Source: Takakia lepidozioides (Eukaryota > Plantae > Bryophyta). Taken from it: 64,000 nucleotides of DNA. The notes under the pieces were generated by a model that saw nothing but the letters and a program-made list of their open reading frames with translations, had not been told where the DNA came from and made no database searches. The stretch covers positions 26,226,001 through 26,290,000 of the forward strand of contig CM060734.1 in NCBI GenBank assembly GCA_030704615.1. Direction: 5' to 3'. Positions 16,801-45,276 of the stretch are shown here, one piece after another; position 1 is the stretch's first letter, and every line of letters begins with the position of its first letter. Made by a program: the position numbers and the translations under genes.

Positions 16801-19800
16801 GTAGACTTTATTCGTGGATGCAGCTGACTTTTCCTTTTCATAATAGACTCTGGCATTAAAGAAAGGATTGCATCCAATAAGAATCTTGGGCAAGAAATTT
16901 GATGAGATTCTGTCTGTGGGTTTATTGATACCTGAAGATTGTACTAACTTAAAGCATCAGTGATGTGCTCATGAAACCAACAGAAGGCTGAATGAAGGGT
17001 TTGCCATGCATACAATGTTTGCCTATGGTAGATGACATGACCCCTGTACTATGAATGGGGCTATAAAGGGTCTAGTCTCTGTAGTGTTTTAACAAGATAT
17101 TGATTCCGTACATGTAAAGGGAGTGCCGACAGGCTCAGGTTTGAATTCCCTACAATGTATGTTACCTTCCTGAAATTTATGCACCTTGTTAGTACATGCT
17201 AGGTACGATATATGTACTCATGAGAGACGATGTTTGCTGTAGCCTTGCGCAAAACAAGAGGGAACAGACACCACCTTTGTGAAGGGCTCACTCAAGTAGA
17301 ACTTACCTTGGTATAAACAATTGGTTCGGGCTTTCCAGATTTCCTCTAGAGATCCCTTCACACAAGCATAGATCTGCTGTGTGTGAGCTGCAATTAGACC
17401 CCACCAGGGCCAGGGCTTTAGGCTCAGCCTCAAGATTTTGAAAGTTGGTGAACAGAAGTGCAGGTACTATGTTCTTGATGTTCCTGAAGAGGGTTGCTCT
17501 CTGATGAGAAAGCCCCGCACATTGTATCAGAAAATGGATAGTCTTCAGGCTACCCGCACATCGAGCATTGACAATGACCCTTTCTTCTCTGCATCTGTTA
17601 AATGTTCACAGGTAGACTTGCCACCCTGAGTTTAAATTTCAGTTAAGTGCCGATGGTAGGTAGGCCCTTTAGATCATCCTTAAGATCCTCACCCATGTCA
17701 CAAACGTAAAACAAGTTCAGGTAAGAATTTGAGCCTAACTTCGTTTTATTTGGACATTCTTCGTGCTTCCGACATGGCCTTAGACACTTCAGCCTCCAAG
17801 TCAGCTTCATCTAGCAGGGTCAGTCTTCCTGCCTCATATTCAGGCGCTTGAAAATCTCCTCTCTACATTTTTCCAATAGGAATTAGACTGTTTAACAGGA
17901 TGGTCTTGCTTCCAAGAAATAGAGTCGATCATTCTAGGGTATCTGGTATTAGGTGCAATATAGCTGGACTGAGAGGTCAGGCATACCTACTACTGTAGAT
18001 GATGGTACTTGAGAACTGTCATGGTAATGTAGTAAATCCACTAGTCTAATTGCGAATATCGGGTTAGAAATGCACAACTCCTGAGAAGAGCTGCTTTCGA
18101 GCACTGCAAGTATATAATTAGGTCTGCTCTAAGGGTTAAGTAGGTCGTTGATCCAAACAGGGAAAAAACTCGTACATCACAACAGGTGAACTCAAGGATG
18201 ACTCCAAGATGAATTACCCTGATGTCCCCTGATTGTCAGATGTCTGAGGAGAAAGGTTGAACACTCACTCACAAGAGCCCTATAGATTTGAAAGATAGAC
18301 AAGGAATCAGAAGGAATCTATGCGCCTCACCATGTTATCCACTACTGTTGTCTGAAGAACAAGCTCACAGAGCCATGTAGTGTTTCTAAATGTGAGAGAG
18401 TTGTACCAACTTTCTCACACAACACCCTAAAAAGGAACCCAAACTCCCGCATCAGAAATGGATCCCTATGCATTCATCCTAACCACCTAAGGCAGGTGAC
18501 AGACATCTTCTTTACAATTCAAACCTGGAAGAAGGGTGGACTCCCTTCTCTCGAACTAGAACTAAGTGAAGGATGAGGTGACCACGAGGCCTACAGACTT
18601 CCAAGCATTGGGTAAAATGGTGACATGGGAGAACTGGAGGTGACTACAAGCATAGGCTCTCTCAAGGACTAACTTTTAAACAGATAAAACAGCAGGGAAC
18701 CTACTCTCATGTGGTGACTGGGCGCGGGGTCAATGGCCACAAGGCTACGGCAAACAACGTCTTATGAGTACATTCTCATGTGGTGACACACATTCTTCAT
18801 AATAAAAAATGTGAAACCTTGACCTAGCTGTAGATCGGGTCCTCTGCAAATACACAATCATAGTTGGAGGGAGGAAAGCATCGATGAACTATGAAATATG
18901 ACTAAAACACAGCAGCATGCCATTCGGAATATTCTGAAAATTTGCACATCCAATGAAGGGAATACATAAGGTGTTTGCAAATCCAGGACAATCTAGATTT
19001 ACAAATAAGTCAAGGCCATTAAACCTTGGCATCCACACTGGGATATAGAATAAAGCCAAACTAGCCTGTCAGAGAATGAAGACTTACAGGAAAGCAGAAC
19101 AAACAAAAGACAAAAACAACAGGAAGAAGAGAAACTTGGCGGGTTGTGAGAGCCATGAAATGGTCAAGAAGGAAGGAACATCACATAAAATTCACAGAAT
19201 GCTGGACTCATCCTGCTTCATCAGCACCCAAGCATAGGAACTCATAACAACATATTGGGAAATCTGGGTTGATTCCAAGATGCATTTCTGCACAGACCTT
19301 TCCCGTAGGATAGAGACAACAAAAATGAAAAGGAAAGACAATAATTATGGAAAAATAGACCAAAACATTCTGAAACAGCATCGGACTAACAAGAGCAAAC
19401 GAGCAAGAAGACAACAAGCAATCAAATGAAGGCACATACATAAAAGGGACATCAACACATAGTATAAAATTTTCCATTTAGACTACAGAATAGCCTAGAA
19501 GAAAAAACTCAATGACTAGAATTATAAACAGAGTTAAAACAAAGTTTCTGGACGGCTGGGATTTCACACAGCTAACCTTGACCATTTGTTGGACTGTATG
19601 TCAAAGCAATGTACATCTGCAGTTGCCCCTGCCAATCCTGTACACACAATGCATTCCATCCATAGACAATGCTTGAAATAACCCAACTGGACAAGAAAAT
19701 CGAGCCAATGTGGTACGCTGGTCCAGCACACACAAGGTTGACTTCTCTTGTTCTGACACCAAATGTATTCTTGCAAAGCCAGACGCGATTGTGGATCACA

Positions 19801-20206
19801 ACCACTCTTTTCACATAGCATACATAGCAACAAGTATAGCCAAATAAATACATTTAGGGTCAACGCACATACTGATGCCAGCACCAGCAGAAGCCGCCTG
19901 TGGGCCGGCCGCACTAGAATTGCCCTCAAGTGCAGTTGCACCTCCAAAGAGAATAAGGCGAGGCCCAATGAAACCAGCAGTGCCTTCCTCGCCGACGGCT
20001 GCGACTGCTGTCAGCGTATGACCACACCGAGGCCCTGGACCATCCTCCTTCTTTTCACATATAGCATTCACGATTCTATAAGCCGGTGCTGGCCTGGGTC
20101 CCGGCGAATGTTGCTGCTGCTGAGGTGGCGGCAACGGCGGTGGTGATGGCACAGAATGCTGCTGTTTCTCAGCCTCCCCCCCCATACCTGCTGCGTCCAC
20201 TTCCAT
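7894..20206 (-). CDS. BSL2: Serine/threonine-protein phosphatase BSL2/BSL3-like (BSU1 family; N-terminal Kelch repeats + PP1-like catalytic domain), 21 coding exons, about 985 aa
   Basis: Exons (minus strand): 20206-19873, 19637-19577, 15127-15049, 14893-14814, 14700-14606, 14449-14350, 13987-13918, 13043-12942, 12808-12727, 12477-12298, 12078-11793, 11670-11412, 11269-11099, 11004-10766, 10470-10386, 10002-9904, 9205-9006, 8837-8762, 8594-8459, 8200-8061, 7977-7894. All introns are GT-AG and the total is 2958 nt, in frame. Motifs: [43 protein letters not shown]-terminal RGSLAWI*. Confidence 0.95.
8272..8443. repeat. Imperfect tandem duplication inside BSL intron 19
   Basis: aaacacataccacct...attacccaga...ggacacagtaaagaggcaa occurs twice about 112 bp apart. 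Confidence 0.8.
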
Positions 20207-21500: not shown

Positions 21501-21501
21501 A

Positions 21502-22540
21502 TGTCGCGCACCTCACTTTAGTAAACTCTCATTCGTGTCATAGTTACTCGCTTTGGTGCACCCGCCTAACTCCCAAACTTGTCGTTGGACCAATTTGGAG
21601 CTTCGGCTGCTCACCAGGACATACGTTCCCCCACACAGCCCTCGATTATGCAAATTGAGTGGAAATTCCTTTTAGTTGTAGGCAGTCCGGAATAGCTCTC
21701 CACATTTGGTCGATTCCTGGTTTGCTTGTTTGTTTTACTAGCTTTTGGTTGTTTAACGGACTTGCACCGTTCTCGGGGTTACTACTCCCTATATATACTT
21801 TTGTAGGTGTCGGCGGGGGTCTCACAAACAGCCAAGTCTTTTTTGGTGAACCACCACCGGTGAACCTCAACTCCCTGTGATGAGTCGTCGTGAGTCTTGG
21901 CCCACCCACCACGGCCCCAATGGCCCGTGGTGAGTCCTATGCCACCCCCACCAACGACCACCCCACTCGGAGCCCTCACCGCAACCCGATTGTAGAGCTC
22001 CACATAGTGAGCGCCTCCGCCATCTTGAGTGCCTTCGAGACTCAAGGGTCGTTCAACCCCCACTCCTCCTGCTGCCGTTACCCCCACCATAGGGACAGCC
22101 CCTCATGTGTCCCGACCCCCCTCCCCTCAAGGCAAACGGCTGTGATATACACCCCTACCAAGAAGGAGTCGATGTCCTCATTGACTTGTTCTTTTTTGTG
22201 GAAACTAACTTGTAAGTTGTGGCGTTCCACATCAAGAGTTTGTTCCCATGCCATGCCGTCCCATGACAAAGAACCAAACCCCCACTTGACTCTTACCCCC
22301 CACTAACTAGTTCGGCCGACTCCCCAAGTCACGGCCAAAGATGGAGCGTCTCAGACTCCACCCAATGCACTCTTCTCGACCCACTTCATGGCCGAGGTAT
22401 GATCCTCCTTGAGGATCGAATCGCCTTACTGCAATAATAATTGTTTACGACCATTTGTGATGCCACTAGTGGCAGCTCTTTGAGCAAGGGTTCGCCTTGA
22501 ACCCTTTTGACTAGGAAGCTGCTAACGTTGAACTCAACCT
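21502..22540 (-). mobile_element. Element D: truncated, older copy of the element-C family (3' LTR 21502-22147 + PPT + 3' UTR)
   Basis: Reverse complement of about 35435-36453. It begins tgtcgcgcacctcac (reverse complement of the LTR end gtgaggtgcgcgaca), and the PPT reads tacacccctacc on the plus strand at 22148. Confidence 0.9.
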
Positions 22541-24511
22541 CAAACCAGCAGGTACCACTGCCAAGTTTGGGTCAACTCTGTCATCAACATTGGGAAGGTG
22601 ACATGGCGCACAATTACGCACATGGTCCTTCCAAGCCATGTCATCCCGACCCTCCAAGATCAGGACTCTTGAGGCCAACACCTCTTGAACCCTCAGAATA
22701 ACACGCCCTACAGTGACATCCAGGGTTGTAGGAGCAGTCTGCTGCAAATAAACATAGTCACTAGGGCTAAACCTCCGAACCCCGAGACGATATCCTCCAC
22801 CACGTATAGTGGCATACCTCAACGTATCACGGTGTTGTGCAATGGCAAGGTTCTCAAAAGCCATGGGCATGACTTTCTTGAACAACTTTGCACGCTGATC
22901 ACATGCACGTCCACACACGTCCGGATCGTCAAGATTAAGGACTTGAGCAGTGTCCCTACGAATGGCTGCAGGCAAATCCGGCTCTCGACCAAAGAGAAGG
23001 AAATATGGTGAGAAGGAGGCAAATGATGTTTGCTTGCTGAATCTATAGCCCATGGCTATCCAAGGTACCTGAAGATCCCAATCTCCTAGGTGTCCCTTCT
23101 GCAAGCCATACTTGCGCAAACCCTTCTTCACTGTCTGTACAACTTCTCTGCCAAGCCATCGACCTCAGGATGATCCCGAGAAGTGGTACGGTGGTCTATC
23201 AAGGCTTTATCACAAAGCCTAAAACCCCCCCAAGAACTCTCTCCCTTGGTCCGTGAATACCTCAGCTAGAGTACCGAATTGGCTAAGCACACGATCCAAG
23301 AATGCATACGCAGCTCCCTCACTAGCCTTATCAGGCAATGGAACCAATTCAATCCACTTGGAGAAGTGCTCCATCATCACCAACACATATTTGTGGTGGC
23401 GTATCGTCAGTGGCAACGGTCCTGCGAAGTCAAGACTTCACATGTAGCCCCCAATCCCATGATGGGTAAAGGATACAACTGTGGTGTAGGGGCGTTGAAT
23501 GAAGCACGCACCCTGTCACACACCATGCACCTAGCCACGAGCTGATGTATCTCTGTATGCATACCACGCCACCAATACTGCCCCTGCAGTAGACTGCGAG
23601 TGCGTCGCACTCCAAAATGCCCCAACTCCTCATGGGCATGCCGCACTAACCGTGCACGCTGTGTTGGGTGAGGCACGATCCTCATCCGATCATCCTCCCA
23701 CACTCGAAGTAGGTGTATCCCCTCCCACTTGAACCTCTTGGCTCGTTGCAGGATCCGATCCTTCTCCCTGGCAGTCACAATGGCTGTCGTGTCTCCCGTG
23801 CGGAGGTAGTCCAACATAGCCAAATCCTCATATATATCTTTGGCACCACCTGGCTCATCACTAGCCTCAGGGTCCTCAGACACTCCGTCTACAGTCGTCC
23901 CTGTTGTAAGTCCAACCTGACCTACCGATGCCAAGATACACAAAAATGCAGATGCGTGACATCCCGGCATCATCTCCTCGTCCGTCTCACCATGCCACCA
24001 AGCTCTAGTGTCATCCTACTGGCTCGTGCATGGATTGTGACTCGTCCTCGATTAACCGAACCTGGTCGATGCACAACCTGAAAGTCATACTTTTGGAGTA
24101 TGAGTGCCCACTGTGCAAGCTTCCCCGTAAGCTTGTCTGACTCCATCAACCACTTGAGTGGCTGGTGATCCGTGACAAGGGTGAAGAGATTGGCATATAA
24201 ATAGCACCTGAATTGTGCCACGGCCCACACTGCAACTAAGCACTCTCCCTCATATAAGCTATATTTAGTCTCTGCAGCGTTGTTCGAGTGGCTAGCATAA
24301 GCCACTACGAACTCTTTTCCCTCATCATCCACCTGTGTGAGCACCGCTCCAAGCCCCAACATGCTCCAATCCATATGCAGCTGAAAGGGACGCCCCTGAT
24401 AGGTCGTCTGAAGATGGGCGTCGAGGTCAACCTCGCCTTGAGCTCATGAAAAGCTCGTTTCTGCTCATCTTCCCACTGCCACTCCTGGTCCACCTTGGTC
24501 AGCTTGGTTAG
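22540..24511 (-). mobile_element. Element A, 3' part: Ty3/Gypsy connection domain + RNase H + integrase (degenerate)
   Basis: LTKLTKVDQEWQW; DWSMLGLGAVLTQ...LVTDHQPLKWL (RNase H); HEELGHFG...CMVC zinc finger; EHFSKWIE, TDQGREF core; AQHRDTLRYATIRGGGY C-terminus. Confidence 0.92.
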
Positions 24512-25123
24512 TGTCACGGACATAGCCCAGAGGAACTTACCAGGAATAAATACCAAAAGTTACCAAGTTACCATGTTACCGGAAGTTACCATGATTTACC
24601 GTGATTTACCATTATTTACCAAGTTACCGGGAGTTTATCAAATTACCAAGAGTAACTTGAGAAACTGCTCAGAAAGCTTCCTTTGGAAGAAACTTCTCCA
24701 TCAAGATACCTTCTTTGTTTAAGGAAACTTCTCCATCAAGAAACCTTTGTTTAATCTTGGAAACTTCTCCAGCAAGAAACCTCCATAGATGAAGCTTCTT
24801 AGGGAAGCTTCTTAGTAGCCAGTATATATAAGAGGCGAGATTGGACACTCTTCAGTCTCGCCAACACCAGTTCAAGCTACTCTTATTTCCAGTTCCCAGT
24901 ACTCTAGCCTAGTTTTCAGTATCTGGTACTTCAGTCTAGTTTCCAGCATTCCAGTATTCAAGTCGTGTTCCAATATATTGTACTCTTGTTCATTGTTATA
25001 AAGATCATCTTGGTTCATATTTACTCATCGTGCATACGGCCACGCCGACCTTGATTTCTTGTCTAGTCTTGTACCTCTAGTCTGATCTCTTGTTTGTGTT
25101 CAGTCATGTTCTCGTCCTTGATA
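24512..25123 (+). repeat. 5' LTR of element B (TATA box 24823-24831, candidate initiator TCAGT at 24852-24856)
   Basis: Direct repeat of 36865-37460 with an imperfect terminal inverted repeat. Confidence 0.93.
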
Positions 25124-25125
25124 GT

Positions 25126-25139
25126 TTGGCGAGACTGAA
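25126..25139 (+). promoter_or_regulatory. Self-priming primer binding site of element B
   Basis: ttggcgagactgaa lies just after the LTR and is the exact reverse complement of ttcagtctcgccaa at 24851-24864. Confidence 0.85.
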
Positions 25140-25161
25140 ATTTGTTCCTTAGTTAGTTAAG

Positions 25162-28100
25162 ATGAAAGGTACATTTGCGGAAACGGTCGTCACATTGCAG
25201 AGTCTTCAGCTCCAGATGCAAGAACTTCGTGCCTCTACTGCCCAACTACAAGCTGATCAGTCTCAAGATCTTAGCAACACTCTCAACAATTTGCAACAAC
25301 AAATTTCAGAGTTGAATGAGTCGAACAATGGATCTTCAACCTGACGAGTCTCTACTACAACAAATCCTACTACCACGGTTCCTTAAAATCTTCAACAGAT
25401 TACAAGAGAACCAAAGGTCAGCATGCCCGAAAAATTTGATGGGACGAGATCAAGATTTCGCGGTTTTGTTCAACAAGTACGATTGTTCCTATGACTACAT
25501 CCACAACGCTACCCTGATGAAGGTATTCAAGTGCGATTCGTAGACACCCTTCTATCAGGCACTGCCCTATCTTGGTTTGCACCGCTATTAGAGAAAAATT
25601 CGTATTTACTATACAATTTTGAAGCATTCATATCCAAGTTCACTACAACATTTGGAGAGAATGATAGAGAGAGAGTTGCAGAGACAAAGATGCGAAATCT
25701 TCGACAAGGAGTACATCCAGCTTCCGTTTATGCTGCCGAATTTCGACAACTTGCGTGCGACCTCGACTGGAATGAGAAGAGTCTCATTAGTCATTTTCGA
25801 TAAAGAAGATGTAAAAGATTTGCTGCTGACGATGCCAAACGTGAGTACACTGAGCGAATTCATCACCCAAGTCATTGCATGCGATAATCGTTTCTTCGAA
25901 AAACGTCAAGAGAAGCGATCTGGATGGTCGACGACGCACCATGCCGTTGCTACCACGGCACCAAACACAACGATCCATTAGACATCCAGTAATGATCGTA
26001 TACAGATTGATACTATCTGATTCAAGCCATTGACGCCACAAGAAAAAACAAATACGGCGCTCAAATGGATTATGCCTTTATTGTGGAGAAGATGATCACA
26101 TAGCATTAAACTGCCCCAACAAGAGAAGATTCAAAGCTCGGGGCACAACTCAAGTGTTCGATACGCGGAGGTCGGAAAACGAAGATGTCCAGTCACAGTA
26201 GGGACCATGCGGCTGAACACCCCAAATTCCTCACAAAAAAAATGTCTTTTTCTACCTCCAGACCCTGTACCTTGTTTCACAGTTCCAGTAAAGATCAGGA
26301 TGCAAAATCGAGATATCTCTGTAGAAGCACTTTTGAACTCGGGTGCTTCAGCGTGTTTTATTGACAAAGACTTTGCAAAGCAATACAATTTAACGCTCGT
26401 AAGAAAGAAATTCTCGGCCCCTGTTGAAGTCATCGATGGACGACCGTTAGCATCAGGAAATATTGACCATGAAACTCGACCCCTTGAAGTGAAGCTTAAA
26501 AATCAAGGATCACAGATTGTTTTCAATGTCATCCAATCTCCTACGAATCCTGTGATCCTTGGACTTCCCTGGTTTATACTTCATAATCCTAACATCGACT
26601 GACGATCACGAAAATTTTTGGCAAGACAAAAATGCAAAAGTACCAAAGGTATACACCCCCTGTTTCTTGGAGCTAGAGCCTTCATGAGAGCTACGAAGAA
26701 AGACGCGACATTTGCACTTTATGCGACTCCGATCAAAACCACAACAGACCAAGGTACTTCGACATTACCCACTCAATATCAAGATTTCAAGGATGTCTTC
26801 GAGAAGAAAAATGCAGACATGTTGCCAGAACATCGACCTTATGATTGTGCAATTGAGTTGCAAGAAGGAGCTCAACCACCATTCGCCCCGATGTACAATT
26901 TATCTCAGACGGAGCTGGCTGCTTTACGCGAATACATTGATGAAAATTTGTCAAAGAATTTCATTCGACATTCGAAATCACCCGCGGGAGCACCTATCTT
27001 ATTTGTGAAGAAGAATGACGGATCGTTACGCATGTGTGTGGACTATCGTGGGCTCAACAAAGTCACTATAAAAAATCGTTACCCACTACCGCTGATTTTC
27101 GGACTCCTCGAACAACTTGGACGAGCAAATTTTTTCACAAAGTTCGACTTGAAATGAACTTACAACCTTGTACGAATAAAAGAAGGAGACAAATGGAAAA
27201 CTGCTTTTCGCACAAGGTACGGACATTTCGAATACAGTGTTATGCCTTTCGGTCTTACAAATGCTCCAGCAATTTTTCAACACATGATGAATGACATCTT
27301 TCGAGAATTTTTAGATGACTTTGTAGTCATCTATTTGGACGACATTTTGATATTTTCACAGAATGAAGAAGAACATGGTCGCTATGTACGCCTTGTCCTT
27401 GATAAATTGAGGGAAAAAAGACTATATGCCAAGTTGAAAAAATGTCTTTTCCACCAATCTGAAGTCGAATTTTTGGGCTACATTATTTCCGACAAATATG
27501 TCTTTATGGATCAGAAGAAAATACAAACCATCATCGAGTGGATTAAACCAACTTAGGTCCGAGATGTACAATGTTTTCTAGGATTTACAAATTTTTATAG
27601 AATCTTTATCAATGACTAATCCAAAATTGCTGCATCACTGACACAACTCACAGGAAAGGACAAATTTGTATGGGACGAGAAGGCTGACCAAGCATTTGAA
27701 AGGCTGAAGCAGACATTTATAACGACTCCAATACTGATACATGCAGACCCATCTAAACCATTCTTTTTGGAAGCAGATGCATCGGACTTTGTACTTAGCG
27801 CGGTACTCTCTCAATACGGTACAGATGGCCGACTTCACCCTGTTGGTTTTCGTTCTCGCAAATTTTCCGCTGCGGAGATCAATTATGAAATCCATGACAA
27901 AGAACTTCTAGCGATTATCGATGCTTTTGAGGAGTGGCGTCATCTATTGGAGGGAGTTAAACATCAGGTCACAGTCTATACCGATCACAAAAACCTCGAG
28001 TATTTTATGAGTGCTCGTGTTTTGAATCGACGTCAAGCAAGATGGAGTATGTCACTAGCAAGGTTTGATTTTGATATTACCTACCGTCCCGGACATCTTC

Positions 28101-29497
28101 AAGAAAAACCAGATGCTCTTTTTCGACGATCGTATCTTGTGTCAAAAGAAGGGGATGCAGCTTTTGACCAACAGAAATCCATCATCTTGAAACCAGCAAA
28201 TCTCCAAGTGAATATGTTATCCATGTCCACCTATGACGATGTAGAGATCATAAAGGAGATTCAGGAAGCACTGAAGAGTGACCAATTTGCTACGACACTA
28301 CGAAGTCAACTAAATCGACCTCAAGACAACCCACATGTTACAAACGACTTCGAATTCAAAGATGGCTTACTTTATTTCAAGGGACTTCTCTATGTACCTC
28401 CAGGACCTACACGATTTTGAATTCTTCAAACATGTCATGATCTTCCGGCTGCAGGATATTTCGGCTTCAACAAAACAATGGAATTGATATCCAGGGACTA
28501 TTGGTGGCCGCAGATGTGGAAACTCGTGAAAGAATTTATAAAATCTTGCGACACATGTGCTAGAGCGAAGGAACCACGACATCGACCTTATGGCCTTCTT
28601 CAACCATTACCCATTCCCAAGGGTCCATGGTCGTCCGTGTCTATGGACGGACCTTCCAATTTCCAAGACCACTGATTCAATCCTTGTTATTGTATATCGT
28701 TTTACGAAGATGACACATTTCATTCCATGTAATAAGACGGTTACCGGCGAGGAAACTGCAAGACTCTTCTTCAATAATATCTACCGCATTCATGGACTCC
28801 CGAAGGACATCGTATCTGATCGAGGACCACAACTCATGTCAAATTTTTGAAGGGGATTATTTCACATATTGGATACTAAGATCAACCTCTCTACAGCTAA
28901 TCATCCACAGACTGATGGTCAAACCGAACGCGTAAACCAGATTTTGGAGCAGTATCTTCACTGTACGATAAATTATCACCAAGATAATTGGACGGACCTT
29001 CTGTCATTGGCTGAGTTTGCCTAAAACAACACTATACATTCTTCGACCAAACAAACTCCATTTTTCTCCAATTATGGTCATCATCCTCGAGCAAACCTTT
29101 TCCACATGAAAACTATTGGAAGCCCTGCTGTAGAAAACCTTGCTACTCATCTTGCTACGATTCACAAAGAACTTACATTCCACCTCGCAGAAGCTCAAAA
29201 ACAATACAATGAGTATGCAGATCAACGTCGCCAACTCCAACCCCAGTTCAAGGTTGGAGATCGTGTGTGGCTTCTTCGACGGGATATACAAACCTCGCGA
29301 CCATCAAGGAAGTTGGATTATCAATGCCTGGGACCATTCAAAATTATTCGACAAATACATCCGGTGAGTTTTCGGCTTGAACTCCCACGAAGGATGCGCA
29401 TCCATCCAGTCTTTCATGTTTCATTATTGGAGTTGTATCATCTATCGAATATTCCAGGGAGAGTTTCCGTACCACCTCCACCAGTCGAAGTCAATCA
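25162..29497 (+). pseudogene. Element B gag-pol (many stops and frameshifts)
   Basis: ORF pieces 25162.., 25531.., 26207.., 26618.., 27242.., 27767.., 28478.., 29106.. give gag, PR, RT, RH and INT in order. Confidence 0.93.
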
Positions 29498-32400
29498 TGT
29501 CGCGACCCTTTGCCTTGAGGGCAGGGGGTTGGGACACATGAGGGGCTGCCCCTGTGGTGGGGGCAGCGGCAGCGATAGGTATGGGGGGCTGAAGCACCCT
29601 TGAGTGCCCAAGGCACTCAGGGAAGCGGAGGCGCTCACTAGGTGGAGCCCCGCACATCGGGTTGCGGTGGGGGTGGCTCCACAAGGGGTGGTGGTAGCTT
29701 AGCGGGACTTAGTGGGGGTGGCATAGGACTCACCATGGGGACGGAGACCTCGTGGTGGGAGTCGTGGGGAGTCTTGGGACTCATCACGGTCCATAGGGGC
29801 CGTGGTGAGTGGGCCAAGATTCACCGCGACTCATCACCGGAAGTCGAGGGTTTTCGTAGTGGTTCGCCATAAAATGGCATGGCTGGTTGTGAAACCCCCG
29901 CGGACAGCTACAGAAGTATATATAGGGAGTAGTAACCCCGAGAACGGTGCAAGCCTGTTGGTGACCAAAAACTAGTGAGTAAGCGAGCGAGCCGGAAAGC
30001 GACCAAAGAGTGGGGAGCTGTTCCGGACTGCCAACTACCAAAGGGAATTCCCGTTGGTTCCAAATCGGTGGAGGGTTCTTTGGGAGAACAAAGGGGGACC
30101 GTTATGCCCCGGTGAGCAGCCGAAGCTCCAAGTTGGCCCGGCGGCGAGGTTGGGAGTCAGGCGCGCGCATCAAAGCGAGTAACTATGACTTGAGGGGGAG
30201 CTTACCGAAGTGAGGTGCGCGACACTTGGTATCAGAGCTTAGAGTTCAGTACGTGATCGTCCTTGGGATTGGCCTCATCATAGGGTCGGGCAAGCCAAAG
30301 CGAAAGCGGAACGGCCCAAAAGATGATGATCCTGGTGAGCCCGATGGGGGCGACGTGTCACCGAGGCGGCCGTTTGAGGAAGCGATGCATGTCTCCAAAA
30401 ACGAGGCCGCTCAAGAGCGGGAGGAATCTGAGGAGTCGGAGCCCGAGGAATCCCTGAGAGCTCCGACCGACCAACAGATGCCTCCCATGCCGGCAGCCTT
30501 TTGGGAAGGGTTGTTGGCGCAATTTGGCGGGACGTTGAAAGACGTGTTGAAGGCGGCTAATGCCACTTCCACTAAGGCAAAATTTAAGGTGAAGCCTAAG
30601 GAACCCGGTACCTTCGAGGGTGTCCGAAATCGGAAGGCACTCAACACCTGGCTCTTGGAGCTAGAGCAGTACTTCCGGGCGGCCAAGTTGAGTGACGAGG
30701 ACCGGGTGGAAGTGGCTCCCACCTATTTGAGGGGCTATGCTCAACAATGGTGGCAGAAACGCCTTCACGACCAAGGTCCAGGCCCGAAAACCTTGAACTG
30801 GAGTGGGTTCAAGGAATTGATGAAGAGACAGTTTGTGCCCCTCAACGCGTCCTGGCTTGCCCGGGACAAGATGAGGAATTTGAAGCAAACAGATGACATT
30901 CGGGGGTGTGTCCAGGCTTTCAATGTGCTGTTGCTCGAAGTCGCGGACATGGCAAAATCAGAAATGGTCTTCAACTTTGTGGCGGGACTGGCCCCATGGG
31001 CCAGGCGGAAGTTGGAGGAGAAGCCACCCAAGACTTTGAACGAGGCAATTGAGAGGGCTGAATGTTTCTCGGGTGTCCCTAGGGGTGAGAGACAAGGCCG
31101 TACGGAGCTGAACCACAAGAAGACCCGGCGGGAAGGTGACTCCTTCCGACCGGAAAAGAAGTGGGATAGGCCACGCGGTGACAATGGCACGTGGAAATCG
31201 AAGGGAGGGCCTTCACACGTCAATGCGGCACCCGGTGCTTTGAAAGAAAAAGCGGGTGAAGCGGCTTATGGCGGATAGAAGGCGACCTTTGATGGAGTGT
31301 GTTTCAATTGCGGGGAGCCCGGGCACATGGCCAAGAAGTGCACGAAACCTCGACAATTGAACATGACTCGGGCAACCACGGAGCTGTCGGAAGATACCAT
31401 CAGTTGCTTGGTGGAAGCGGTGGTCGCCAGGACTTGCAAGGTAGGCAACTATTCTTGTGAGTTGTATCAGGAAACTGGCGCCCTGCATAAAGGGAGTCAG
31501 TTATTGTTCGTGGATGGGATAATATCCGGAACTAACGTGTCGTTGTTGGTGGACACAGGAGCGTCGCACTCCTTCATGACGCCGGCGGCGGCGCGAAAGT
31601 TGGGACTCCCGACAAGTGACGTGGGGGCCTCTATTGAGGTGCGTTGTGCCAAAGGAGAACCACAGTTGGCGACAAGGTTGGCGTTTGATGTTCCTCTTCA
31701 ACTGGGGAGTTGGGAGGGACGTGAGAACTTCACCATCTGCGAGATCGATGGAGTGGATCTCATTTTGGGGATGACCTTTTTGAGCAAATCCGGAGTGGTC
31801 ATAGATGGCCGCAAGAGAGTAGTCACGCTGCCATGTGGGAATGGTGGCGAGGTCTTACGAGTGTCGGAAACGCCCAAATCCGTGGGAGGGCGAATAAACC
31901 TTCTGCCAGCAAGGGAGTGGGCCGTGGAGGAGGCACACGAGCCCCAGTTTTTGCTTTACATTAGAGAAGTGAAGGGAGAAGGCGATGGGGAGCTGAGCCT
32001 AGATTGGATCAAGGGGATTTTGGAGAAATACCAGGATGTGATGCCGGAGGATTTACCAAGCGGCTTGCCACCGCGAAGAGGAGTTGACCACAAGATTGAG
32101 GTGATACCGGGATCGGAACTGCCTGCCAAGGCACCCTACCGGTTGAGCCACAGAGAGTTGGCCGAGCTGAAGACTTAGCTCAAAGATCTAATGTCAAAGG
32201 GGTACATCCGGCCGAGTAAGTCACCTTACGGAGCCCCGGTACTATTCGCAGACAAGAAGGATGGGACGCTACGGATGTGTGTCGATTACAGGGCTTTGAA
32301 TAAGGTGATTATCAAAAACCGGTATCCTTTGCCAAGGATCGACGACCTTTTCGATCGGTTGGCAAGAGCGAAGTATTTCAGCCGGATCGATCTGCGCTCC

Positions 32401-35400
32401 GGCTATCATCAAATTCGAGTGGCGGAAGGAGATGAGGAGAAGACCGCGTGCAGGACAAGGTATGGTTCATATGAGTTCTTGGTGATGCCTTTTGGGCTCA
32501 CCAATGCACCCGCAACCTTTAGTACGCTGATGAATAGCCTTTTCCAGGAGTGGTTGGATGACTTTGTGATCGTGTACATCGACGACATCTTGGTGTATTC
32601 GAAAACAAAGGAGGAGCACCTGGAGCACCTCAAAAGGGTGTTCCAGAAATTGTGGGAATGGAAGCTGTATGCCAAAGCTTCAAAGTGCGAATTCGGGGTC
32701 ACAAAAGTACACTCACTCCATAAGGGACTGCCATACCGGGGGCTGGTTGGTGGGATCCCTCTCTCTCCCTCCCTCCTTGGAATTGGAGTTCCTGGGGCAT
32801 GTGATTACACAGGATGGGATCAAAATGGATGACAGAAAGGTGAGGGCGATCTTGGACTGGGAGCCTCCGACATCGGTCCCGGGAGTGCGGTCCTTCCTAG
32901 GACTCGCCTCCTATTACCGGAAGTATGTGAGAAATTTCGCCAAGATCGTGGGGCCGTTGTCAGACCTTCTGTGTAAATCCAAAGTCTGGGTATGGAACAC
33001 ATTTTGTGGCCAAGCTTTTGCTGAATTGAAGCAGCGAATGGCGGAAGCTCCAGTCTTGAAAATCCCGGAGTTCGATCGTCCATTTGAGATTCATACAGAT
33101 GCGTCGGACTTCGCGATTGGGGGTGTACTTATGCAAGATGGACGTCCAGTGGCTTACAAAAGTAAGAAACTGAATGAAGTGGAGCGACGGTGGCCGACGC
33201 ACGAAAAAGAGATGAAGGCGGTGGTGCATTGTCTTGAGCTTTGGCGCCACTATGTTGGTTCCAACCCAGTGAAGGTGTTCATGGACAATGTCACAGTGAA
33301 GTATTTTGCCACGCAACCCAAGTTGTCCCCAAAACAACTTAGGTGGCAAGATACTTTGGCGGTGTTCGACGTGGATATCCAGTACAAACCAGGACGGGAC
33401 AATGTGGTGGCCGATGCTTTAAGTAGAAAGCATCAGCTCATGTTGGTGTATAGGGGCGAGACGGCGCTCCAAAGGAAGATCCGGAAGGCTTGCCGGAAGG
33501 ATGAGCTAGCGAAGTCCGTGATGCAAGACTTGAGGATGGGGGTTAAATCGCAGTTCCATTTGCAAAATGGACTGCTCCGGTATAAGCAAAAGCATCTCTA
33601 TGTGCCGAAGGGAGGGATCAGAGATAGTCTCTTGAGAGAATGCCATGATGGCCCGTTTGCGGGCCACGGCGGAGCCAAGCGCACCGTGGCACTCTTGAAG
33701 AAAGAGTATTTCTGGCCCAAACTCAGGGAGGAGGCAGAGGAGTATGTCAAGACATGCACGACATGCCAACAAAACCGGAGCGAGTACAAAAAGCAAGCGG
33801 GGCTGTTACAGCCCTTGCCGATTCCAGAGGGGACTTGGGAAAGCGTCTCGATGGATTTCATGACTGCTATGCCGCTGTCAAAAGGATTCGATGCAATCAT
33901 GGTGGTGGTGGATAGGTTCAGTAAAATGGGCCATTTCATCCCTACCAAGGAGACGGCAACGGCGCAGGAGACAGGGCGACTTTACTTCGCCAACGTCTTA
34001 AAGCATCATGGAGTCCCGAAGGATATTGTCTCGGACCGCGATCCAAAGTTTACGAGTAAATTTTGGAGGACACTTTGGAAGAAGATGGGGACGAGGCTGA
34101 AGATGAGCACCGCCTTCCGATCTACGACCGACGGCCAAACGAAAAGAGTGAATTCCGTAGTGAAGCAGATCTTGCGGAATTACGTGTCGGCAGACCAATC
34201 AGACTGGGTGGAACACTTAGACGCGGTAGAGTTCTGTTATAATAACACAGAACACTCCGCAACGGGAGTTTCCCCTTTCGTATTGGTCTATGGAAAAGCA
34301 CCTCTGGTGCCGACAAGTTGGGCCGCCCAGGACGTTGAGGAACCGGCAGTAGCGGCGGTACTGGAAGAACGCGAGTGTTTGTTGAAGCTCGCAAAGTACA
34401 ACATTGCCAAAGCTAGGAAACGGTATGAAAGGCAGGCGAATCGGAAGCGGAGGGAAGTGAAGTTTGTGGCAGGCATGGAGGTCTGGTTGAACATCAAGAA
34501 TTCCCGACTACCTCCGGAAGTGAGTCCAAAGTTCGTACCTCCGTATGCGGGACCCTTTCGCATCCGGAAGGTTATGAATGAGGATGTGTATGAATTGGAG
34601 CTGCCGGCAAACAACAAGGTGCATCCAGTATTCCACGTCTCCATTTTGAAGCCTTACTTCAAAGATGAAGCGCGTCCGAATCGGCATCAAGTGTTGCGTC
34701 CGCCACCTGTGCTGTTGGATCATGAAAATGAACCTGAGTACGAGGTGGAGGCAGTACTTAAATCGAGGAGGTTCAAGAACCGAGAAACGGAGTATCTCAT
34801 CAAATGGAAGGGCTATCATCATGTGGAGGCATCTTGGGTGCGTGCCTCAGAAATGGGAAACGCATCCGAGGCGGTTGCAGTTTTCGAAGGGCGACCTCAA
34901 AAGTGGAAAAAACGTTGATGGGGACATCAACCTTGGAGCGTGGGGGAGGAAATGCATGCTTAGCCCAGCTTAGCTAGCTCAGGAATCCGATTGCAAAAAT
35001 TTGTATTGTACAAAATTTGCTTTAAATGAAATGGTTTTCAAATGTTGTGCTTCCTATTTTGTTTGGAATGGTGATGCATGGTATGGTTGGCTAGTGTGTA
35101 GAATGCATGCTAGCTTACAAAGTGGGAGAGGTAAATTGGGTTAATCGTGTGTTTGCACAGTGCCGAAATCGGGTGACTCCCATCCAAGGGGCAAGGAAAC
35201 TTGCGCCTTCTTTGGGAGTTCACGTGCTAGTGCGCACCTGGCGCGTGCGCGTACTATAACTGCACTACCGAGGGGGTTGCCTTGTAGTGCGGGCTAACGC
35301 GGAAGCTACGTGCTTCCGTTTATGTACTATAATCGTGTAGCCTCGGGACGAAGTCGTAGTGCGGCTTCGGCGTATTCCCGTACCTCAGGCCAGCATTCCA

Positions 35401-36453
35401 AGGCGGACCCAATTGTAGTGATTGGGGCGCGCGGTTGGTTCAAGGTTATCTTTCTAGTCAAAGAGGGTTCGAGGTGAACCTTGCTCAAGCGATGCCCAAA
35501 GCGGCATCATGAGCGGTCGCAAGCAATGTTGTTGCAGTAAGGCGATTCGATCCTCGGGGAGGATCGTTCCTTGGCCTTGAAGTAGGCCAAGAAGAGTGCA
35601 CTGGGAGGAGCTTGAGAGGCTCCACCCTTGGCCGGGACTTGGAGGAAGTCGGCCGACGCCACAACTTGGATGTTCGTTTCTACAAAATGGACAAGTCGAT
35701 GAGGACATCGACCCCCTGTTGGTAGGGGTGTGTGTCGCGGCCCTTTGCCTTGAGGGCAGGGGGTCGGGACACATGAGGGGCTGCCCCTGTGGTGGGGGTA
35801 GCGGCAGCGATAGGTATGGGGGGGCTGAAGCACCCTTGAGTGCCCAAGGCACTCAGGAAGCGGAGGCGCTCACTAGGTGGAGCCCCGCACACCGGGTTGC
35901 GGTGGGGTGGCTCCACAAGGGTGGTGGTAGCTTAGCGGGACTTAGTGGGGGTGGCATAGGACTCACCATGGGGGCGGAGACCTCGTGGTGGGAGTCGTGG
36001 GTAGTCTTGGGACTCATCACGGTCCATAGGGGCCGTGGTGAGTGGGCCAAGACTCACCTCGACTCATCACCGGAAGTCGAGGGTTTTCGTAGTGGTTCGC
36101 CATAAAATGGCATGGCTGGTTGTGAAACCCCCGTGGACAGCTACAGAAGTATATATAGGGAGTAGTAACCCTGAGAACGGTGCAAGCCCATTGGTGACCA
36201 AAAACTAGTGAGTAAGCGAGCGAGCCGGAAAGCGACCAAAGAGTGGGGAGCTGTTCCGGACTGCCAACTACCAAAGGTAATTCCCGCTGGTTCCAAATCG
36301 GTGGAGGGTGCTTTGAACAAAGGGGGACCGTTATGCCCCGGTGAGCAGCCGAAGCTCCAAGTTGGCCCGGCGGCCAGGTTGGGAGTCAGGCGCGCGCATC
36401 AAAGCGAGTAACTATGACTTGAGGGGGAGCTTACCGAAGTGAGGTGCGCGACA
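29498..36453 (+). mobile_element. Element C: full-length chromoviral Ty3/Gypsy LTR retrotransposon (Galadriel-like by protein features), TSD AATCA
   Basis: LTRs 29498-30224 and 35733-36453 (TG...CA); TSD aatca at 29493-29497 and 36454-36458; PBS tggtatcagagc (tRNA-iMet) 30227-30238; PPT ggtaggggtgtg 35721-35732. Confidence 0.97.
30226..34918 (+). pseudogene. Element C single gag-pol polyprotein with C-terminal chromodomain; two in-frame TAG stops and one 76-bp frameshifting insert
   Basis: CFNCGEPGHMAKKC knuckle; LVDTGAS protease; [10 protein letters not shown]; HTDASDF RNase H; HDGPFAGH..CTTC and SDRDPKF integrase; EYEVEAVL...YLIKWKGY...ASW chromodomain. Stops at 31276-31278 and 32176-32178 are in the same frame. 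Confidence 0.95.
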
Positions 36454-37460
36454 AATCAGGAGTATGAAGTCGACGAAGTCCTAGACTCTCGCATCAAGTA
36501 TAAACGTCTTGGTACAACTTGGAAGGCAATTAATTCCTTCAACATTGTACCTGCCTCATGCCAGTATTGTGCTCCTACTCGAAGTCTGATAATTTTGTTG
36601 GAGGTTGAGGCTTCGGACCCAGAGGGCAACGAAATCATGTTTGAAGGCAACTTCGAAAATCAGAATACTCAAATCACTACGTGGTCCCAAGTTCAAGGTG
36701 TTGGAAACTATCGGTGGTTGCAGGGACCTATAAATTATTTGAGTCAAGAACGAAGAGCCGAATACTTGGCAAGTACCATTCACCGGATTTTGGATTTTCT
36801 CCAACTCTAAGCAAGTCCAAGATTTTACCGCTCCTCGAGGAACTCGGCGCTAGAGGAGGGGTGATGTCACGGACATAGCCCAGAGGAACTTGCCAGAAAT
36901 AAATACTAAAAGTTACCAAGTTACCATGTTACCGGAACTTACCATGATTTACCGTGATTTACCATTATCTACCATGATTTACCATTATTTACCAAGTTAC
37001 CGGGAGTTTACCAAATTACCAAGAGTAACTTGGGAAACTGCTCAGGAAGCTTCCTTTGGAAGAAACTTCTCCATCAAGATACCTCTTTTGTTTAAGGAAG
37101 CTTCTCCATCAAGAAACCTTTGTTTAATCTTGGAAACTTCTCCAGCAAGAAACCTCCATAGATGAAGCTTCTTAGGGAAGCTTCTTAGTAGCCAGTATAT
37201 ATAAGAGGCGAGACTGGACACTCTTCAGTCTCACCAACACCAGTTCAAGCTACTCTTGTTTCCAGTTCCCAGTACTCCAGTCCAGTTCCCAGTACTCTAG
37301 CCCAGTTTCCAGTATCTGGTACTCCAGTCTAGTTTCCAGCATTCTAGTATTCAAGTCGTGTTCCAATATCTTATACTCTTGTTCATTGTTATAAAGATCA
37401 TCTTGATTCCTATTTACTCATCGTGCATACGGCCACGCCGACCTTGACTTCTTGTCTAGT

Positions 37461-40454
37461 GACGATTTACAGGCCGGTAATCACTGCACATACGTCTCTC
37501 CGTCCAATTGCCATAGATATCCTTCTTGGATAGCATCACTGTGGCTGAAGCATACTCTCCACCAGAGAGCTCCACCAAACCAGCCTCCCAAAGGTCTTGA
37601 GTCCTTATCTGAATCAAAGGCCTCTCTATGTCACTATATCTATAGGGTCTCCGAAAGATTGGCGTGTCAGTGGCCAACTCAATACGAATTTCCTGACCCT
37701 TCAGTGCTCCCATGTCCTTCAAACTGAAGGCAAAGCAATTCCTGTAAGCCTCAGAAACCGCCGTATACGTCGTCTCTCTCCTCTAGTGACAATGGGTCCA
37801 ATGTTAGGCTCCCAATTGTCCTCCGTAACTGCAACCTTAAGTCCAGCAGACTTAAAGGTAGGAGATGCGTCCCGTTGTTGCTATGCCGCAACCTCTTGAG
37901 CAGTGGCCACTGCCTGCTCTGTCAGTGACAAGGCCTCATCCTGCCCCATCATCTCATCCCTGAGGACCTCCTCAACCGGAGAAGAATCCCCAACCTCATC
38001 CTTCACCGCCGCTTTGGCTGCCAACTCCCTCTAAACCTCGAGCACCTCCCACGTGTGCCATGGATACCTGCACCCCGTGGTCCTCGCCTGCTCGCCCTCA
38101 TTCACTGCCTATACCGTCTAGGTAGGCAGAGAGACCATCAAGGGAAGTGTACTCCACACTCTGCATTACTCAACCATAGCCAAGCTAATGATCCAGGTCA
38201 AGCAATTGAGATCCATTGCTTGCCCCAACACCTGACGACGTGATGCCTTAGAAAGAGACTGCACCGCCGTGGTACCAGTGGTAAAACCCATCGCCCACTC
38301 ACGCTCATCAACATTAGGCTCCACTAACTGCTGCAACTGATAATCCAACAGGAGGCCAGGTCCACTATCCCGGAACACATGCGATCCTGGGAAGCTGAGC
38401 AGTTTAGGTAATGCTGCTCGTGGTTGACCCACCTTGTTGATTACTGCCAAAGGCGAACGGTCATCGTGTCTCACACGCTGAGACTGTCTCCCTATGTCCA
38501 AAATGTTATCCACTGTCAGGTGTGTTGGCCGTTGCACCCCATCAAATGTACGCTTGAGCAGTGCGGGTGGCATCAAGTTAGTCCACCATAGCTGTGGGCG
38601 ATGAGTTCATGAACCCACTGCAGTTGTGTCCAGCAACACTGCTAACCCAAGCCACGACCGGACTTGATGCACACTGGTCATCATCCTGGCCCAAGAATCG
38701 CCCATCAGTGGCACATTCTCCAAGATGTATGTTGGAGATACAGCTTGATAAAGTTGTAAGTGGCGCAAAACCCGCACCATCTCCCAAAACAGACCCGACC
38801 TCAAGTCTCGCAATCCATTGCCATGCCCGGCTGATGAATGCCCTTGGCAAGGCCAACCTGCCACTACCAAATGAATGGAGCCAACCCGCTCCAAATCCTG
38901 CGCCCCCAGCAACGAAATGTCTGCTGGCAAGTCCTGCTTATATCCACGAATTGCAAACACCGGCAACAACTCAGGGTATTGCTGCACTAACTGAGCAACA
39001 TGGCGTAGTGAGACGCGTCGTGCAGTCTCATCCCTCTCCACATACAGGTAACGCCAAACCCGTACATCTGCCTGTAGCACAGCAGCCAATCCGGTGCTGA
39101 TCCTGCCAAACAAGTCCAGAAGGCAAATGTCGTTATCCGGATACTGCCACACAATGGGTTTGGTATCCAATGGAGACAACTGAGGTGGTCCTGGTGCAAT
39201 CCCCGCACTTTCCTCCTCTCCTAACGGTACAAACACCTCTACCCAGGCTTGTTGCACCCATCGATCAGCAATTCGCTGCAAATCCTTGCTCGTGCCTTAC
39301 AATGGAGTGTGAGCAACCATGGTAGACAACTCCGCCATACCATACATATCATCTTGCTCTGCTGGAGGTGACACATCCTCTGAATGAGCGTTGCCCTCTA
39401 GCAACTCGCTAGACCAAGTCACTGCAGCTGTGAATGCTGTTAGTGTCGGCATCTTGCCTTGCTGGGCAACCGCAACTCCTCCTATATTGAACGTCATGGG
39501 GAGTTGCACACGCCGGCCCTCCCCTGACTGCCATCCAGGCCTGACTCCTCCCAAAAATCCAAGGTGAAGCCCATAGGGTACAACACTGCCCCACCAATTA
39601 GGACATCGTACGAGACCGCGTCTGTCACAATGGCCTTGGCTCACATCATTGAGCCATCTGTCGGGTGATCCGACCGTAGTCTGATAACCAACTCACGTCG
39701 TGTTATGCCTCGAGCCTGCTCTGAACCTCCCAGAGATGTTTGTATCTGGAATGGGCAACGCTCCATGTCCGCCTCCGTGAGGCCCAAGCTTGCGATAGCA
39801 GCTCTGCCCAGCATCAAATGGCTAAGCTCCCGAGTCCAACAAGACCCGTAGTGGTCGGTACCTCTTGCCTGCCGGTCCACTCAAACAGAAAATGTCATCC
39901 TGGTTGTCTAATATGACAACTTCAGGTGTTACCATGGCGCGCTCAATGGCCGGCCTAGCTGGCAACTCCGCCAACTTGGCAGCTGCAGCTTGCCATGACG
40001 CCGCCGTGGCAGTCTTGACCCTCAAATCCCCTCCGCCACTACATCTTCCACTATATCCGCAGAAGATGAAGTGACCTCCCTACTCTCAGAGAGTGTAGCT
40101 GCCAGTCGAAACACTGTAGCTGGTCTGACCCCGACGTTGCAATCATGGTAGTCGAAAACAATGGAGCCTGACACACAGATGTGGCCGCCTCCAGCAGCAC
40201 ACTAGCTACCGTAGCCTTGGCAGCACTAGGTTGTGGTGCTGCCCGTATAGCTCTCCCCAATGGCACAGTAACCTCCGCCTCAGTAGCAGTCGGACGAGAA
40301 CTAGGTGCCATGGATGGCATCGACACTGTCTCCGCCAATGTGAATGACTGAGGAAGCCTAGCCTGAAGACTTCCCCTAGTTGTAAATCCAACTCCACCTC
40401 TGCACCTCGTGGCTCGGGAACGCGTGCTGCTCCTTGAGTCACTGCAGCAGCAGA
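37461..40454 (-). mobile_element. Element A, 5' part: gag-linker / aspartic protease / DNA methyltransferase / start of RT
   Basis: RVLLDSGA protease (DSG at 39836-39828); DNMT domain; RRPYRYSDIER...YASATV...RMCSDYRPVN RT start at 37722-37461. Confidence 0.9.
38166..39281 (-). pseudogene. DNMT3-like C5 cytosine DNA methyltransferase domain embedded in the retrotransposon polyprotein (one in-frame TGA at 38609-38607)
   Basis: Motif I LLDLFGRISTG; II YVERD; IV VAGWPCQGHS (Cys codon 38849-38847); VI YILENV; VIII AHRPQLWWTN; IX EPNVDEREWAMGF; X RRQVLGQAMD. ORFs 38607..39281 and 38166..38576 are in the same frame. Confidence 0.9.
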
Positions 40455-41160
40455 CACTACAGGAAAAGGGGGGCCTTTGCGACGCCGCGGCGTTGGAAAA
40501 ATGCGCATTTCAGGCACGCGGCAGGCGCCGAATTTGCGATGTCCGGTCGTTGCCCGACAGTCGCATGGGCGTTGCCAAAAAGACATCGTAAAAATGCGAC
40601 GTATGGGGGTCGCGAGCCCCCGCCCCAACTCCCGCGATTGCCGGACGTCGCTTTTCGGCCATCCACGCCGATGGCAGGGGCCTCCTTCGAGCGACGTCTC
40701 GCCGTCGCGGCCCTCCAGCCGACGGCGTTGGTGGGGGGGACGGCGCGGTGTCGCATCCCTTTTTTTTTCTAACCTGCCTGGGAGTCCTATCCTAAAACCC
40801 AAAAACACGTGGCGTAAACCGGGTGGTACGCCAAGCGACGCCAGTGTGTCGCTACAAGCGACTATTGGGCGTGGCAAAAAAAAATAGCAGGAGCAGGAGT
40901 CGGGCTCCGCCTAGCCCGGGCTTGGGTTTTCGCCACACTCTGGCGTCGTTTTTTTAATATTTAATCCAAAAAAATAAAAGACGTGGCGCAGGCAGGGTGG
41001 CGGGCTCCGCAACACCAGGGCGTCGTGGCTTGCGACCCCCGGACCAAAAAAACACGTCGCAGGGGGTGTCGGGCATTGCTGCCCGCAAATGGGATTTGCG
41101 ACGCCCGACCGTCGCGGCTTGCGACCCCCGCCCAAAAAACACGTCGCCAATTGCAACGTC
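40455..41160 (+). mobile_element. CACTA (En/Spm) transposon end: TIR + GC-rich subterminal repeats
   Basis: Starts CACTACAGGAAAA at 40455, followed by many tgcgacg/cgtcgc and aaaacacgt motifs in both orientations. The partner TIR was not found in the window. Confidence 0.75.
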
Positions 41161-45030: not shown

Positions 45031-45276
45031 AAAATATATAGTAATGTACATAAAATGTGCTATTCTAAATTATGATCCGAAAAATTGATCGACATGTACC
45101 CCCGGCTGTGCCTCCGGCATTACATCCTCAACCACTTCCACTTTCATCTCTTCCGCCAGCAGTACTACCTCCACCACCTCCACCTCCACCTCCACCTCCA
45201 TCTCCACCTCCACGTGCATGTGCCCCCCGAACCCCTATGAGGGGTCGGCTTCGCCCTAGGTTTCCTCCCCTTCGGC

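Follow-up and report, generated by a model that had tools for sequence, protein, structure and literature searches.

A decayed Ty3/Gypsy element of the moss Takakia lepidozioides belongs to a repeated family with a DNMT3-like cytosine methyltransferase domain

KnitGypsy-Dnmt3 of Klebsormidium nitens is a Gypsy retrotransposon that carries a DNMT3-like domain, free of introns and under purifying selection, and DIRS-like repeats in the order A-coding-B-A-B; its authors place the domain in the Pol open reading frame (ORF) and regard its acquisition as specific to the K. nitens lineage (PMC5890265). SymbioDIRS-Dnmt3 also has a DNMT3-like domain in a retroelement polyprotein and split direct repeats, and its Symbiodinium domains were demonstrated to methylate CG de novo in yeast, but it uses a tyrosine recombinase and is described without protease or DDE integrase (PMC5890265). 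The EpiLTRs or DAM-LTRs are Gypsy-like elements that join a DNA methyltransferase to a chromatin reader, and differ in that the enzyme is DNMT4-related and accompanied by DAM and a chromodomain (bioRxiv 10.64898/2026.05.21.726589). That preprint sets them apart from 'streptophytes (Gypsy-DNMT3)', naming no species, and Sarre 2025 says 'streptophytes' only; both may cover bryophyte sequences in their trees or supplements. An opinion paper of 2019 (Morozov) stated that land plants 'such as tracheophytes' lack such elements (PMC6338049), and the 96-genome table of de Mendoza 2018 has no Marchantia row (PMC5890265). Here and below, what is said of published systems refers to the available portions of the papers concerned. 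What such methyltransferases do for retrotransposons has been a standing question from 2018 onwards: the known hosts are difficult experimental subjects, and the Klebsormidium enzyme showed no activity in yeast. Here, a stretch of 64,000 nucleotides (nt) of the moss Takakia lepidozioides (assembly GCA_030704615.1, contig CM060734.1, positions 26,226,001 to 26,290,000; hereafter the window) was analysed, in which part of a decayed Gypsy element with a DNMT3-like domain lies on the minus strand.

A preliminary description of the window had listed, in minus-strand order, a protease, a C5 methyltransferase domain and the start of a reverse transcriptase (RT), followed at a distance by RNase H and integrase, and this order was borne out by translation and Pfam (Table 1). 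Positions 37459-40460 were covered in tblastn by the Marchantia proteins P0107/P0112 and by P0138. The protease motif LLDSGA was read by six-frame translation at about 39842-39825 on the minus strand; the protease fragments had no Pfam match of their own in the window and were identified by tblastn with relatives, which carry Asp_protease_2, and with a profile built here. Pfam matches to RT_RNaseH and Integrase_H2C2 were obtained at 24443-23410. The order protease, RT, RNase H, integrase, with a DDE integrase (the rve domain was seen in relatives), is that of Ty3/Gypsy.

The methyltransferase domain occupies a single intron-free frame (39296-38166, minus strand) in which motif I, PCQ, ENV, motif VIII and RxxxLGQAMD can be read, motifs I, IV, VI, VIII, IX and X being present in order. 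It matched PF00145, as the preliminary description had anticipated, with an E-value of 4.4e-10 (39.9 bits against a cut-off of 22). This was the sole domain that Pfam found in the methyltransferase part, with no reader or targeting domain, and the ESM Atlas returned PF00145 clusters only. The suggested likeness to DNMT3 was confirmed by sequence and by fold: all seven PDB sequence matches were to DNMT3A, at weak E-values of 3e-4 to 1e-3, and with an AlphaFold model of the domain (pLDDT 83.5) the rows listed by Foldseek were all DNMT3 structures. Among 48,161 representatives, the best fold for this predicted model was DNMT3B (VIA Z 25.6, root-mean-square deviation 3.0, 279 aligned), followed by DNMT3A (25.0), M.MpeI (22.9), M.HhaI (20.9) and DNMT2 (at most 19.9). 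The host enzymes PpDNMT3a/b likewise have a DNMT3-type catalytic domain with unpermuted motif order, but they carry a C-terminal DUF3444 (PMC6453930), which Pfam found neither in the pieces from the window nor in any of 33 long homologs.

The window copy itself is dead, a fossil. The lack of introns and the single in-frame TGA noted earlier (38609-38607, residue 230) hold inside the domain, but more stops and frameshifts occur elsewhere in the element, and gag, the RT core, the PHD finger and the termini are missing; no gag core was found in the whole 64-kb window. The canonical order of the motifs stands as well, but two of their residues are lost here, the motif I glycine being replaced by arginine (Gly in 179 of 196 homologs) and the second arginine of motif VIII by glutamine (Arg in 191 of 196). 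The catalytic cysteine (38849-38847) and ENV (38720) are retained. Among the 196 homologs the catalytic Cys is kept in 193, the Glu in 193 and the motif VIII arginines in 192 and 191, and all five key residues jointly in 169, the median column conservation being 48%. Intact catalytic residues in an open frame were thus not found in the window copy, and the role of epigenetic writer first proposed for it has to be withdrawn, because a broken copy is unable to write methylation. In motif IV, EC stands in place of PC in 82 of the 196 homologs, including P0138, P0344, P0393 and the Closterium protein.

The domain is family-wide in a land plant and no one-off, since it occupies the same position in dozens of loci and in named liverworts and mosses. 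On the Takakia side, 23,837 contigs of the same organism (run X1) lie on 37300-40400 at 80% or more, with the methyltransferase covered like its neighbours. Run X1 also has a 10.5-kb contig that is identical to the window over 7600-17281, and it may be the sample from which the window comes. Summed depth, which is not a copy number, was 5.6-8.5e5 on the integrase/RNase H bins and 68 on a host gene of the window, a difference of about four orders of magnitude. The element family is plainly very repetitive in this genome and carries the methyltransferase domain. No RNA record was present among the listed holders of element sequence, and run X8, which has spliced host contigs as well as family contigs, had no contig over 38340-38859 and gives nothing firm on expression.

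Beyond Takakia, homolog searches returned 103 and 33 proteins, the named family members being from Marchantia polymorpha, Calypogeia fissa, Riccia sorocarpa and four Sphagnum species; among the named rows none came from Physcomitrium, Ceratodon or a vascular plant, and most rows carry no species name. A profile search gave 548 clusters at E ≤1e-30, of which 150 were listed. In 306 domain-bearing proteins the domain stood after the protease or before RT in 74 and after RT/RNase H or before integrase in 95, while 137 were too short to tell the order and cluster members add redundancy to these counts. Named examples of the first order are Klebsormidium GAQ93235.1, a profile-found homolog (zinc knuckle, protease, methyltransferase; 32% identical), and Closterium GJP34393.1; Scenedesmus KAF8056149.1 exemplifies the second. 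The 95 proteins of the second order fit a large sister group with the arrangement RT-RNase H-methyltransferase-integrase-PHD, in which Scenedesmus is the sole named member and which includes P0318, P0133 and P0145; no paper on this group was found. Relatives were present in none of ten candidate stretches from IMG/VR.

In a methyltransferase tree rooted on six prokaryote-like methyltransferases and containing no host DNMT3 rows, the window copy fell in a clade with liverwort and Sphagnum proteins (100/100). The window RT/RNase H grouped with Marchantia and metagenome loci, also at 100/100, in a second tree that had two outgroup RTs, in which about 22 first residues of the window row are in the wrong frame and which is no test of Gypsy-wide monophyly. 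This RT/RNase H tree splits the two domain orders as the methyltransferase tree does, and the two trees agree at a broad level. The Sphagnum methyltransferases cluster with Marchantia rather than with the window moss, on short branches, a placement that may reflect ancient paralogous lineages or horizontal transfer among bryophytes.

Whole elements were sought in metagenome loci, 80 of 89 of which were kept; 77 of the 80 best match a Sphagnum-named protein. Of 53 loci, 45 have the protease upstream of the domain; RT lies downstream of it in 48 of 52, and the integrase is followed by a PHD finger in 17 of 19 (PF00628 was confirmed in three of four pieces tested). Two equal long terminal repeats (LTRs) were not seen in these relatives, which have split repeats A..B-A-B instead: four complete loci (L027, L043, L053, L078) read A-internal-purine tract-B-nn-A-B, with A of about 340 nt, B of 113 nt and ends TG..CA, and four further loci have A and a single B. 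Among the latter kind, L035, L040 and L076 show exact 4-bp duplications and may be products of B-B recombination or a second integrated form. Over eight loci, the 4-bp target duplication was exact in six, had one mismatch in one and was absent in one. An internal CA-nn-TG junction was found in eight loci, and the B end has CG sites beside its terminal CA; the spacer bases between B and A vary (GC in four, AT in two, AC and TC in one each) and may be the two that are trimmed by integrase. No TGG primer-binding site was found after the first A repeat in the seven loci listed. The A and B repeats of L053 were unmatched in the window (best E 0.57).

Integration of DIRS elements produces no target duplication (PMC8969392), and assignment to DIRS or another tyrosine-recombinase group was ruled out by the DDE integrase and the 4-bp duplications, which together with the TG..CA ends distinguish the relatives described here. 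Membership of the Phygy lineage, of which an NCGN target duplication is a feature in REXdb (PMC6317226), was not supported either, none of seven duplications having this form. The combination of split repeats and genuine target duplications suggests that these integrase elements replicate by an unusual route.

The DNMT-bearing retrotransposon of Klebsormidium that the preliminary description had mentioned is indeed described, and its repeat plan is the one found here in complete relatives (PMC5890265). The kind of element is therefore already described, and the land-plant form is a variant of it. The present family differs from KnitGypsy-Dnmt3 in its land-plant host and very large size, in a TAG-CAA stop before RT where those authors place the domain in the Pol ORF, and in the integrase PHD and 4-bp duplications, which the available text does not mention for KnitGypsy-Dnmt3; in place of an acquisition confined to the K. 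nitens lineage, the domain is seen here in Closterium, liverworts, mosses and, at another position, Scenedesmus. In a literature search outside which most subscription journals lay, no report of Gypsy-DNMT3 in bryophytes was found, and none naming five Marchantia loci; nothing further came from PMC10952607 or PMC11244446. Neither the land-plant range nor the 4-bp duplications nor the integrase PHD was found in the literature searched, nor was the conserved TAG-CAA stop, at which no search was aimed.

That stop changes the picture of the methyltransferase as simply part of one Pol, as it was first drawn, since in the bryophyte lineage the enzyme ends an ORF1 of Gag, protease and methyltransferase before a conserved TAG-CAA. 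Of 46 loci, 32 have methyltransferase and RT in one frame and 14 in different frames, as in decayed copies, and in all 32 a stop stands at the same place in the linker. Counting all loci, the linker stop is present in 58 of 61 (TAG in 44, TAA in 14), with CAA next in 54 of the 58, whereas no position among the methyltransferase codons is a stop in more than eight of 28 copies. The window has TAG-CAA-CAA at 37883, and 17 of the 18 nt round the stop are identical between the window and L007, compared with 31-33% in the ungapped flanks, a figure that is lowered by indels. In Marchantia, Calypogeia and Sphagnum the proteins terminate 90-94 residues past motif X, and this accounts for many gene models made up of protease and methyltransferase. 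An in-frame UAG followed by CAA before a polymerase is also the arrangement of type I readthrough in tobamoviruses, whose motif is UAG-CAR-YYA (PMC3542737); the present case differs in that the stop lies in a retrotransposon, after Gag, protease and methyltransferase. L007 and L080 match that motif fully, and the window and the main family have one mismatch. Judged from this sequence context, the linker stop is likely to be a readthrough site, with the enzyme made at the level of Gag.

The methyltransferase domain is under purifying selection. The ratio of nonsynonymous to synonymous substitution rates (dN/dS), obtained with our own Nei-Gojobori script and with dS near saturation between lineages, was 0.08-0.15 for the domain when the window was compared with the loci (28 pairs, 18 of them unsaturated) and 0.20 in 27 pairs between locus lineages; RT gave 0.08 and Gag 0.18. 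The check on dN/dS proposed earlier thus gave 0.08-0.20 between lineages. A stop-free domain was found in three of 28 single-frame loci. After codon control, the CG ratio was 0.73 in the window domain and 0.47 in L007 (CHG 1.08), compared with 0.87-0.98 in the other Gypsy elements of the window. We do not take this depletion as proof of self-methylation, since it is confounded by the age of the element and by methylation by the host. Of 379 sites, 40 were listed, and the 28 of these at which the window has T or A and most other copies C or G (CHG 10, CG 7, CHH 11) made too small a sample to use.

We propose, giving it an even chance of being right, that the window holds a dead copy of a repeated Gypsy-DNMT3 family whose active copies make the enzyme at Gag level, reach RT and integrase by readthrough of TAG-CAA and methylate CG sites of their own cDNA in the particle. 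ORF1 would supply Gag, protease and methyltransferase in equal amounts, and readthrough of its stop would add RT-integrase-PHD as a minority product. The protease would free the methyltransferase, which would be packaged in the particle and act there on CG sites of freshly made cDNA; a copy would then bear a mark like that of host heterochromatin from the moment it arrives. PHD fingers of this type recognise unmethylated H3K4, and the one on the integrase may guide the choice of insertion site. A broader version, in which an ancient green-lineage Gypsy clade that is still abundant in mosses and liverworts packs a DNMT3-type enzyme at capsid stoichiometry via a leaky stop, aims its integration by PHD and has its DIRS-like split repeats resolved by a DDE integrase, is offered tentatively, as we lean somewhat against its being right in full.

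Several results weigh against readthrough and methylation of the cDNA. Only two of the 58 stops carry the full CAR-YYA motif; in the main family an ATG lies two codons past the stop, making reinitiation possible there; and P0138, P0344 and P0445 are each one open frame without a linker stop. Since 56 of the 58 stop loci belong to one family, the stop is documented in three independent lineages, including the window copy, between which synonymous sites are near saturation. In 14 sequences, no 3′ RNA structure stood out above dinucleotide shuffles (z 0.3 to -2.4, like neighbouring windows). Comparisons inside the family give a dN/dS of 0.55-0.68, the kind of value seen when copies decay. The main locus family is depleted in both CG (0.75-0.82) and CHG (0.81-0.89), as host silencing gives, and the span of the host gene is also strongly depleted in CG (observed/expected 0.34); host MET1 can explain the CG depletion, an explanation that is viable because the element is older than the Gypsy controls and the host gene span is depleted too. 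KnitGypsy-Dnmt3 was inactive in yeast, a result that its authors call inconclusive (PMC5890265).

De Mendoza et al. raised accidental host methylation (PMC5890265), and an enzyme made in bulk with Gag might act in the nucleus on chromatin, at insertion flanks, competing elements or host genes. Being encoded at the end of ORF1, the enzyme would be produced in large excess over the needs of a single cDNA, and the integrase bears the chromatin-reading PHD (PF00628). The domain, however, consists of PF00145 alone and lacks a reader or targeting module, and a polyprotein with Gag generally favours packaging, so that we consider nuclear action unlikely. We think it less likely again that the methyltransferase serves replication, binding or marking DNA or RNA at the B-nn-A junction and controlling which CA/TG site is used. 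Split repeats and a methyltransferase do occur together in Klebsormidium (PMC5890265) and here, and the CG beside the terminal CA of B, the CA-nn-TG junction in eight loci and the missing TGG after the first A repeat in seven would suit such a role; yet co-occurrence in one lineage is a single event, and the comparison set held only domain-bearing relatives, chlorophyte-type termini lying outside it.

Inactivity on DNA in yeast (PMC5890265) and the EC for PC in 82 of 196 homologs would also be consistent with a domain that methylates the RNA of the element or binds nucleic acid without catalysis. This is improbable, given that the Cys and Glu are kept in 193 of the 196 homologs each and the motif VIII arginines in 192 and 191, and that the fold is nearer DNMT3 (Z 25.6) than DNMT2 (at most 19.9). 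An intronless, DNMT3-like domain is what a one-off retrocopy of a host DNMT3, or a separate insertion inside the Gypsy element, would leave. The chance of either is close to nil: the domain has the same position in dozens of loci, named liverworts, mosses, Closterium and Klebsormidium, the contigs cover it together with its neighbours, it is under purifying selection, and it lacks the DUF3444 carried by host DNMT3s of non-flowering streptophytes (PMC6453930). The separate origin that the preliminary description had kept in view as an alternative is thereby refuted.

The Marchantia copies make the role of such enzymes testable, as genetics and methylomes are at hand there, and the conserved stop predicts both the amount and the destination of the enzyme. 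On the broader version, new copies would integrate already methylated, transposons would write part of the early land-plant methylome themselves, and Marchantia would be the genetic model in which to test this. Some Marchantia gene models, Mp4g09160 and Mp8g17980 among them, represent ORF1 of these elements and can inflate counts of host methyltransferases.

Table 1. Features of the 64,000-nt window, with the evidence for each
Feature	Position	Strand	Basis
5′ part of decayed Gypsy-DNMT3 element (end of Gag-protease linker, protease, methyltransferase, linker, RT start)	37461..40454	-	tblastn
Aspartic protease (LLDSGA), with stops and frameshifts	39542..39860	-	tblastn with relatives, custom profile
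DNMT3-like C5 methyltransferase domain, intronless	38166..39281	-	PF00145, fold, residues
Conserved in-frame TAG then CAA-CAA, candidate readthrough site ORF1/ORF2	37875..37883	-	alignment with loci
Reverse transcriptase start, frameshift near 37748, cut off at 37461	37461..37815	-	translation, tblastn; other copies continue past 37460
RT connection and RNase H, same element type	24050..24511	-	PF17917, E 5.9e-33
Integrase (H2C2 finger, core, C-terminal part), frameshifted, ends just before PHD position	22537..23900	-	PF17921, E 1.1e-15
Unrelated Gypsy element inserted in RT, right LTR shortened	24512..37460	+	LTR pairs; Pfam gag, protease, RT, RNase H, integrase, Chromo
Younger chromodomain Gypsy nested in outer Gypsy	29498-36453		LTR pair 29498-30224/35733-36453
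Host BSL kelch-phosphatase gene	7897..20206	-	19 tblastn pieces; spliced contigs in runs X8 and X9

The distance between the RT start and the RNase H is due to the outer Gypsy insertion of 12.9 kb (LTR pair 24512-25067/36865-37460), which itself holds an inner Gypsy with LTRs 96.7% alike and a 5-bp target duplication, AATCA. About 583 nt of the RT core are missing at the insertion point, and the same deletion shortened the right LTR of the outer Gypsy. The two halves are bridged by a 2173-nt contig of sequencing run X8, which maps to 37460-38255 and 23730-24511; its two records were equated by equal size and depth. At the other end, a CACTA-type end at 40455 truncates the element inside the Gag-protease linker. 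From there to about 55200, the sequence shows, besides the CACTACA end and its subterminal repeats, frames resembling a transposase (DUF4218) at 47232-51877 and long inverted repeats at 45173-48861 and 52016-55208; a far end matching the one at 40455 was not found in the window. The place of the PHD and the 3′ repeats is taken by 21499-22536, which resembles an LTR and is related to that of the inner Gypsy but runs in the opposite direction.

The host gene used for comparison, BSL, groups with mosses (100/99) in a tree of 23 rows covering mosses, liverworts, lycophytes and seed plants, with no hornwort or alga. One of its introns (17239-18939) contains a pair of short, highly repetitive sequences that are plentiful in both DNA and RNA runs, break off sharply at 18717 and 18777, and are possibly like short interspersed nuclear elements or miniature inverted-repeat transposable elements. 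Towards the two ends of the window, 1-1250 and 61794-62758 are tandem arrays of 53 nt and 95 nt units that have a common core, GGAAATTCGGCGCC.

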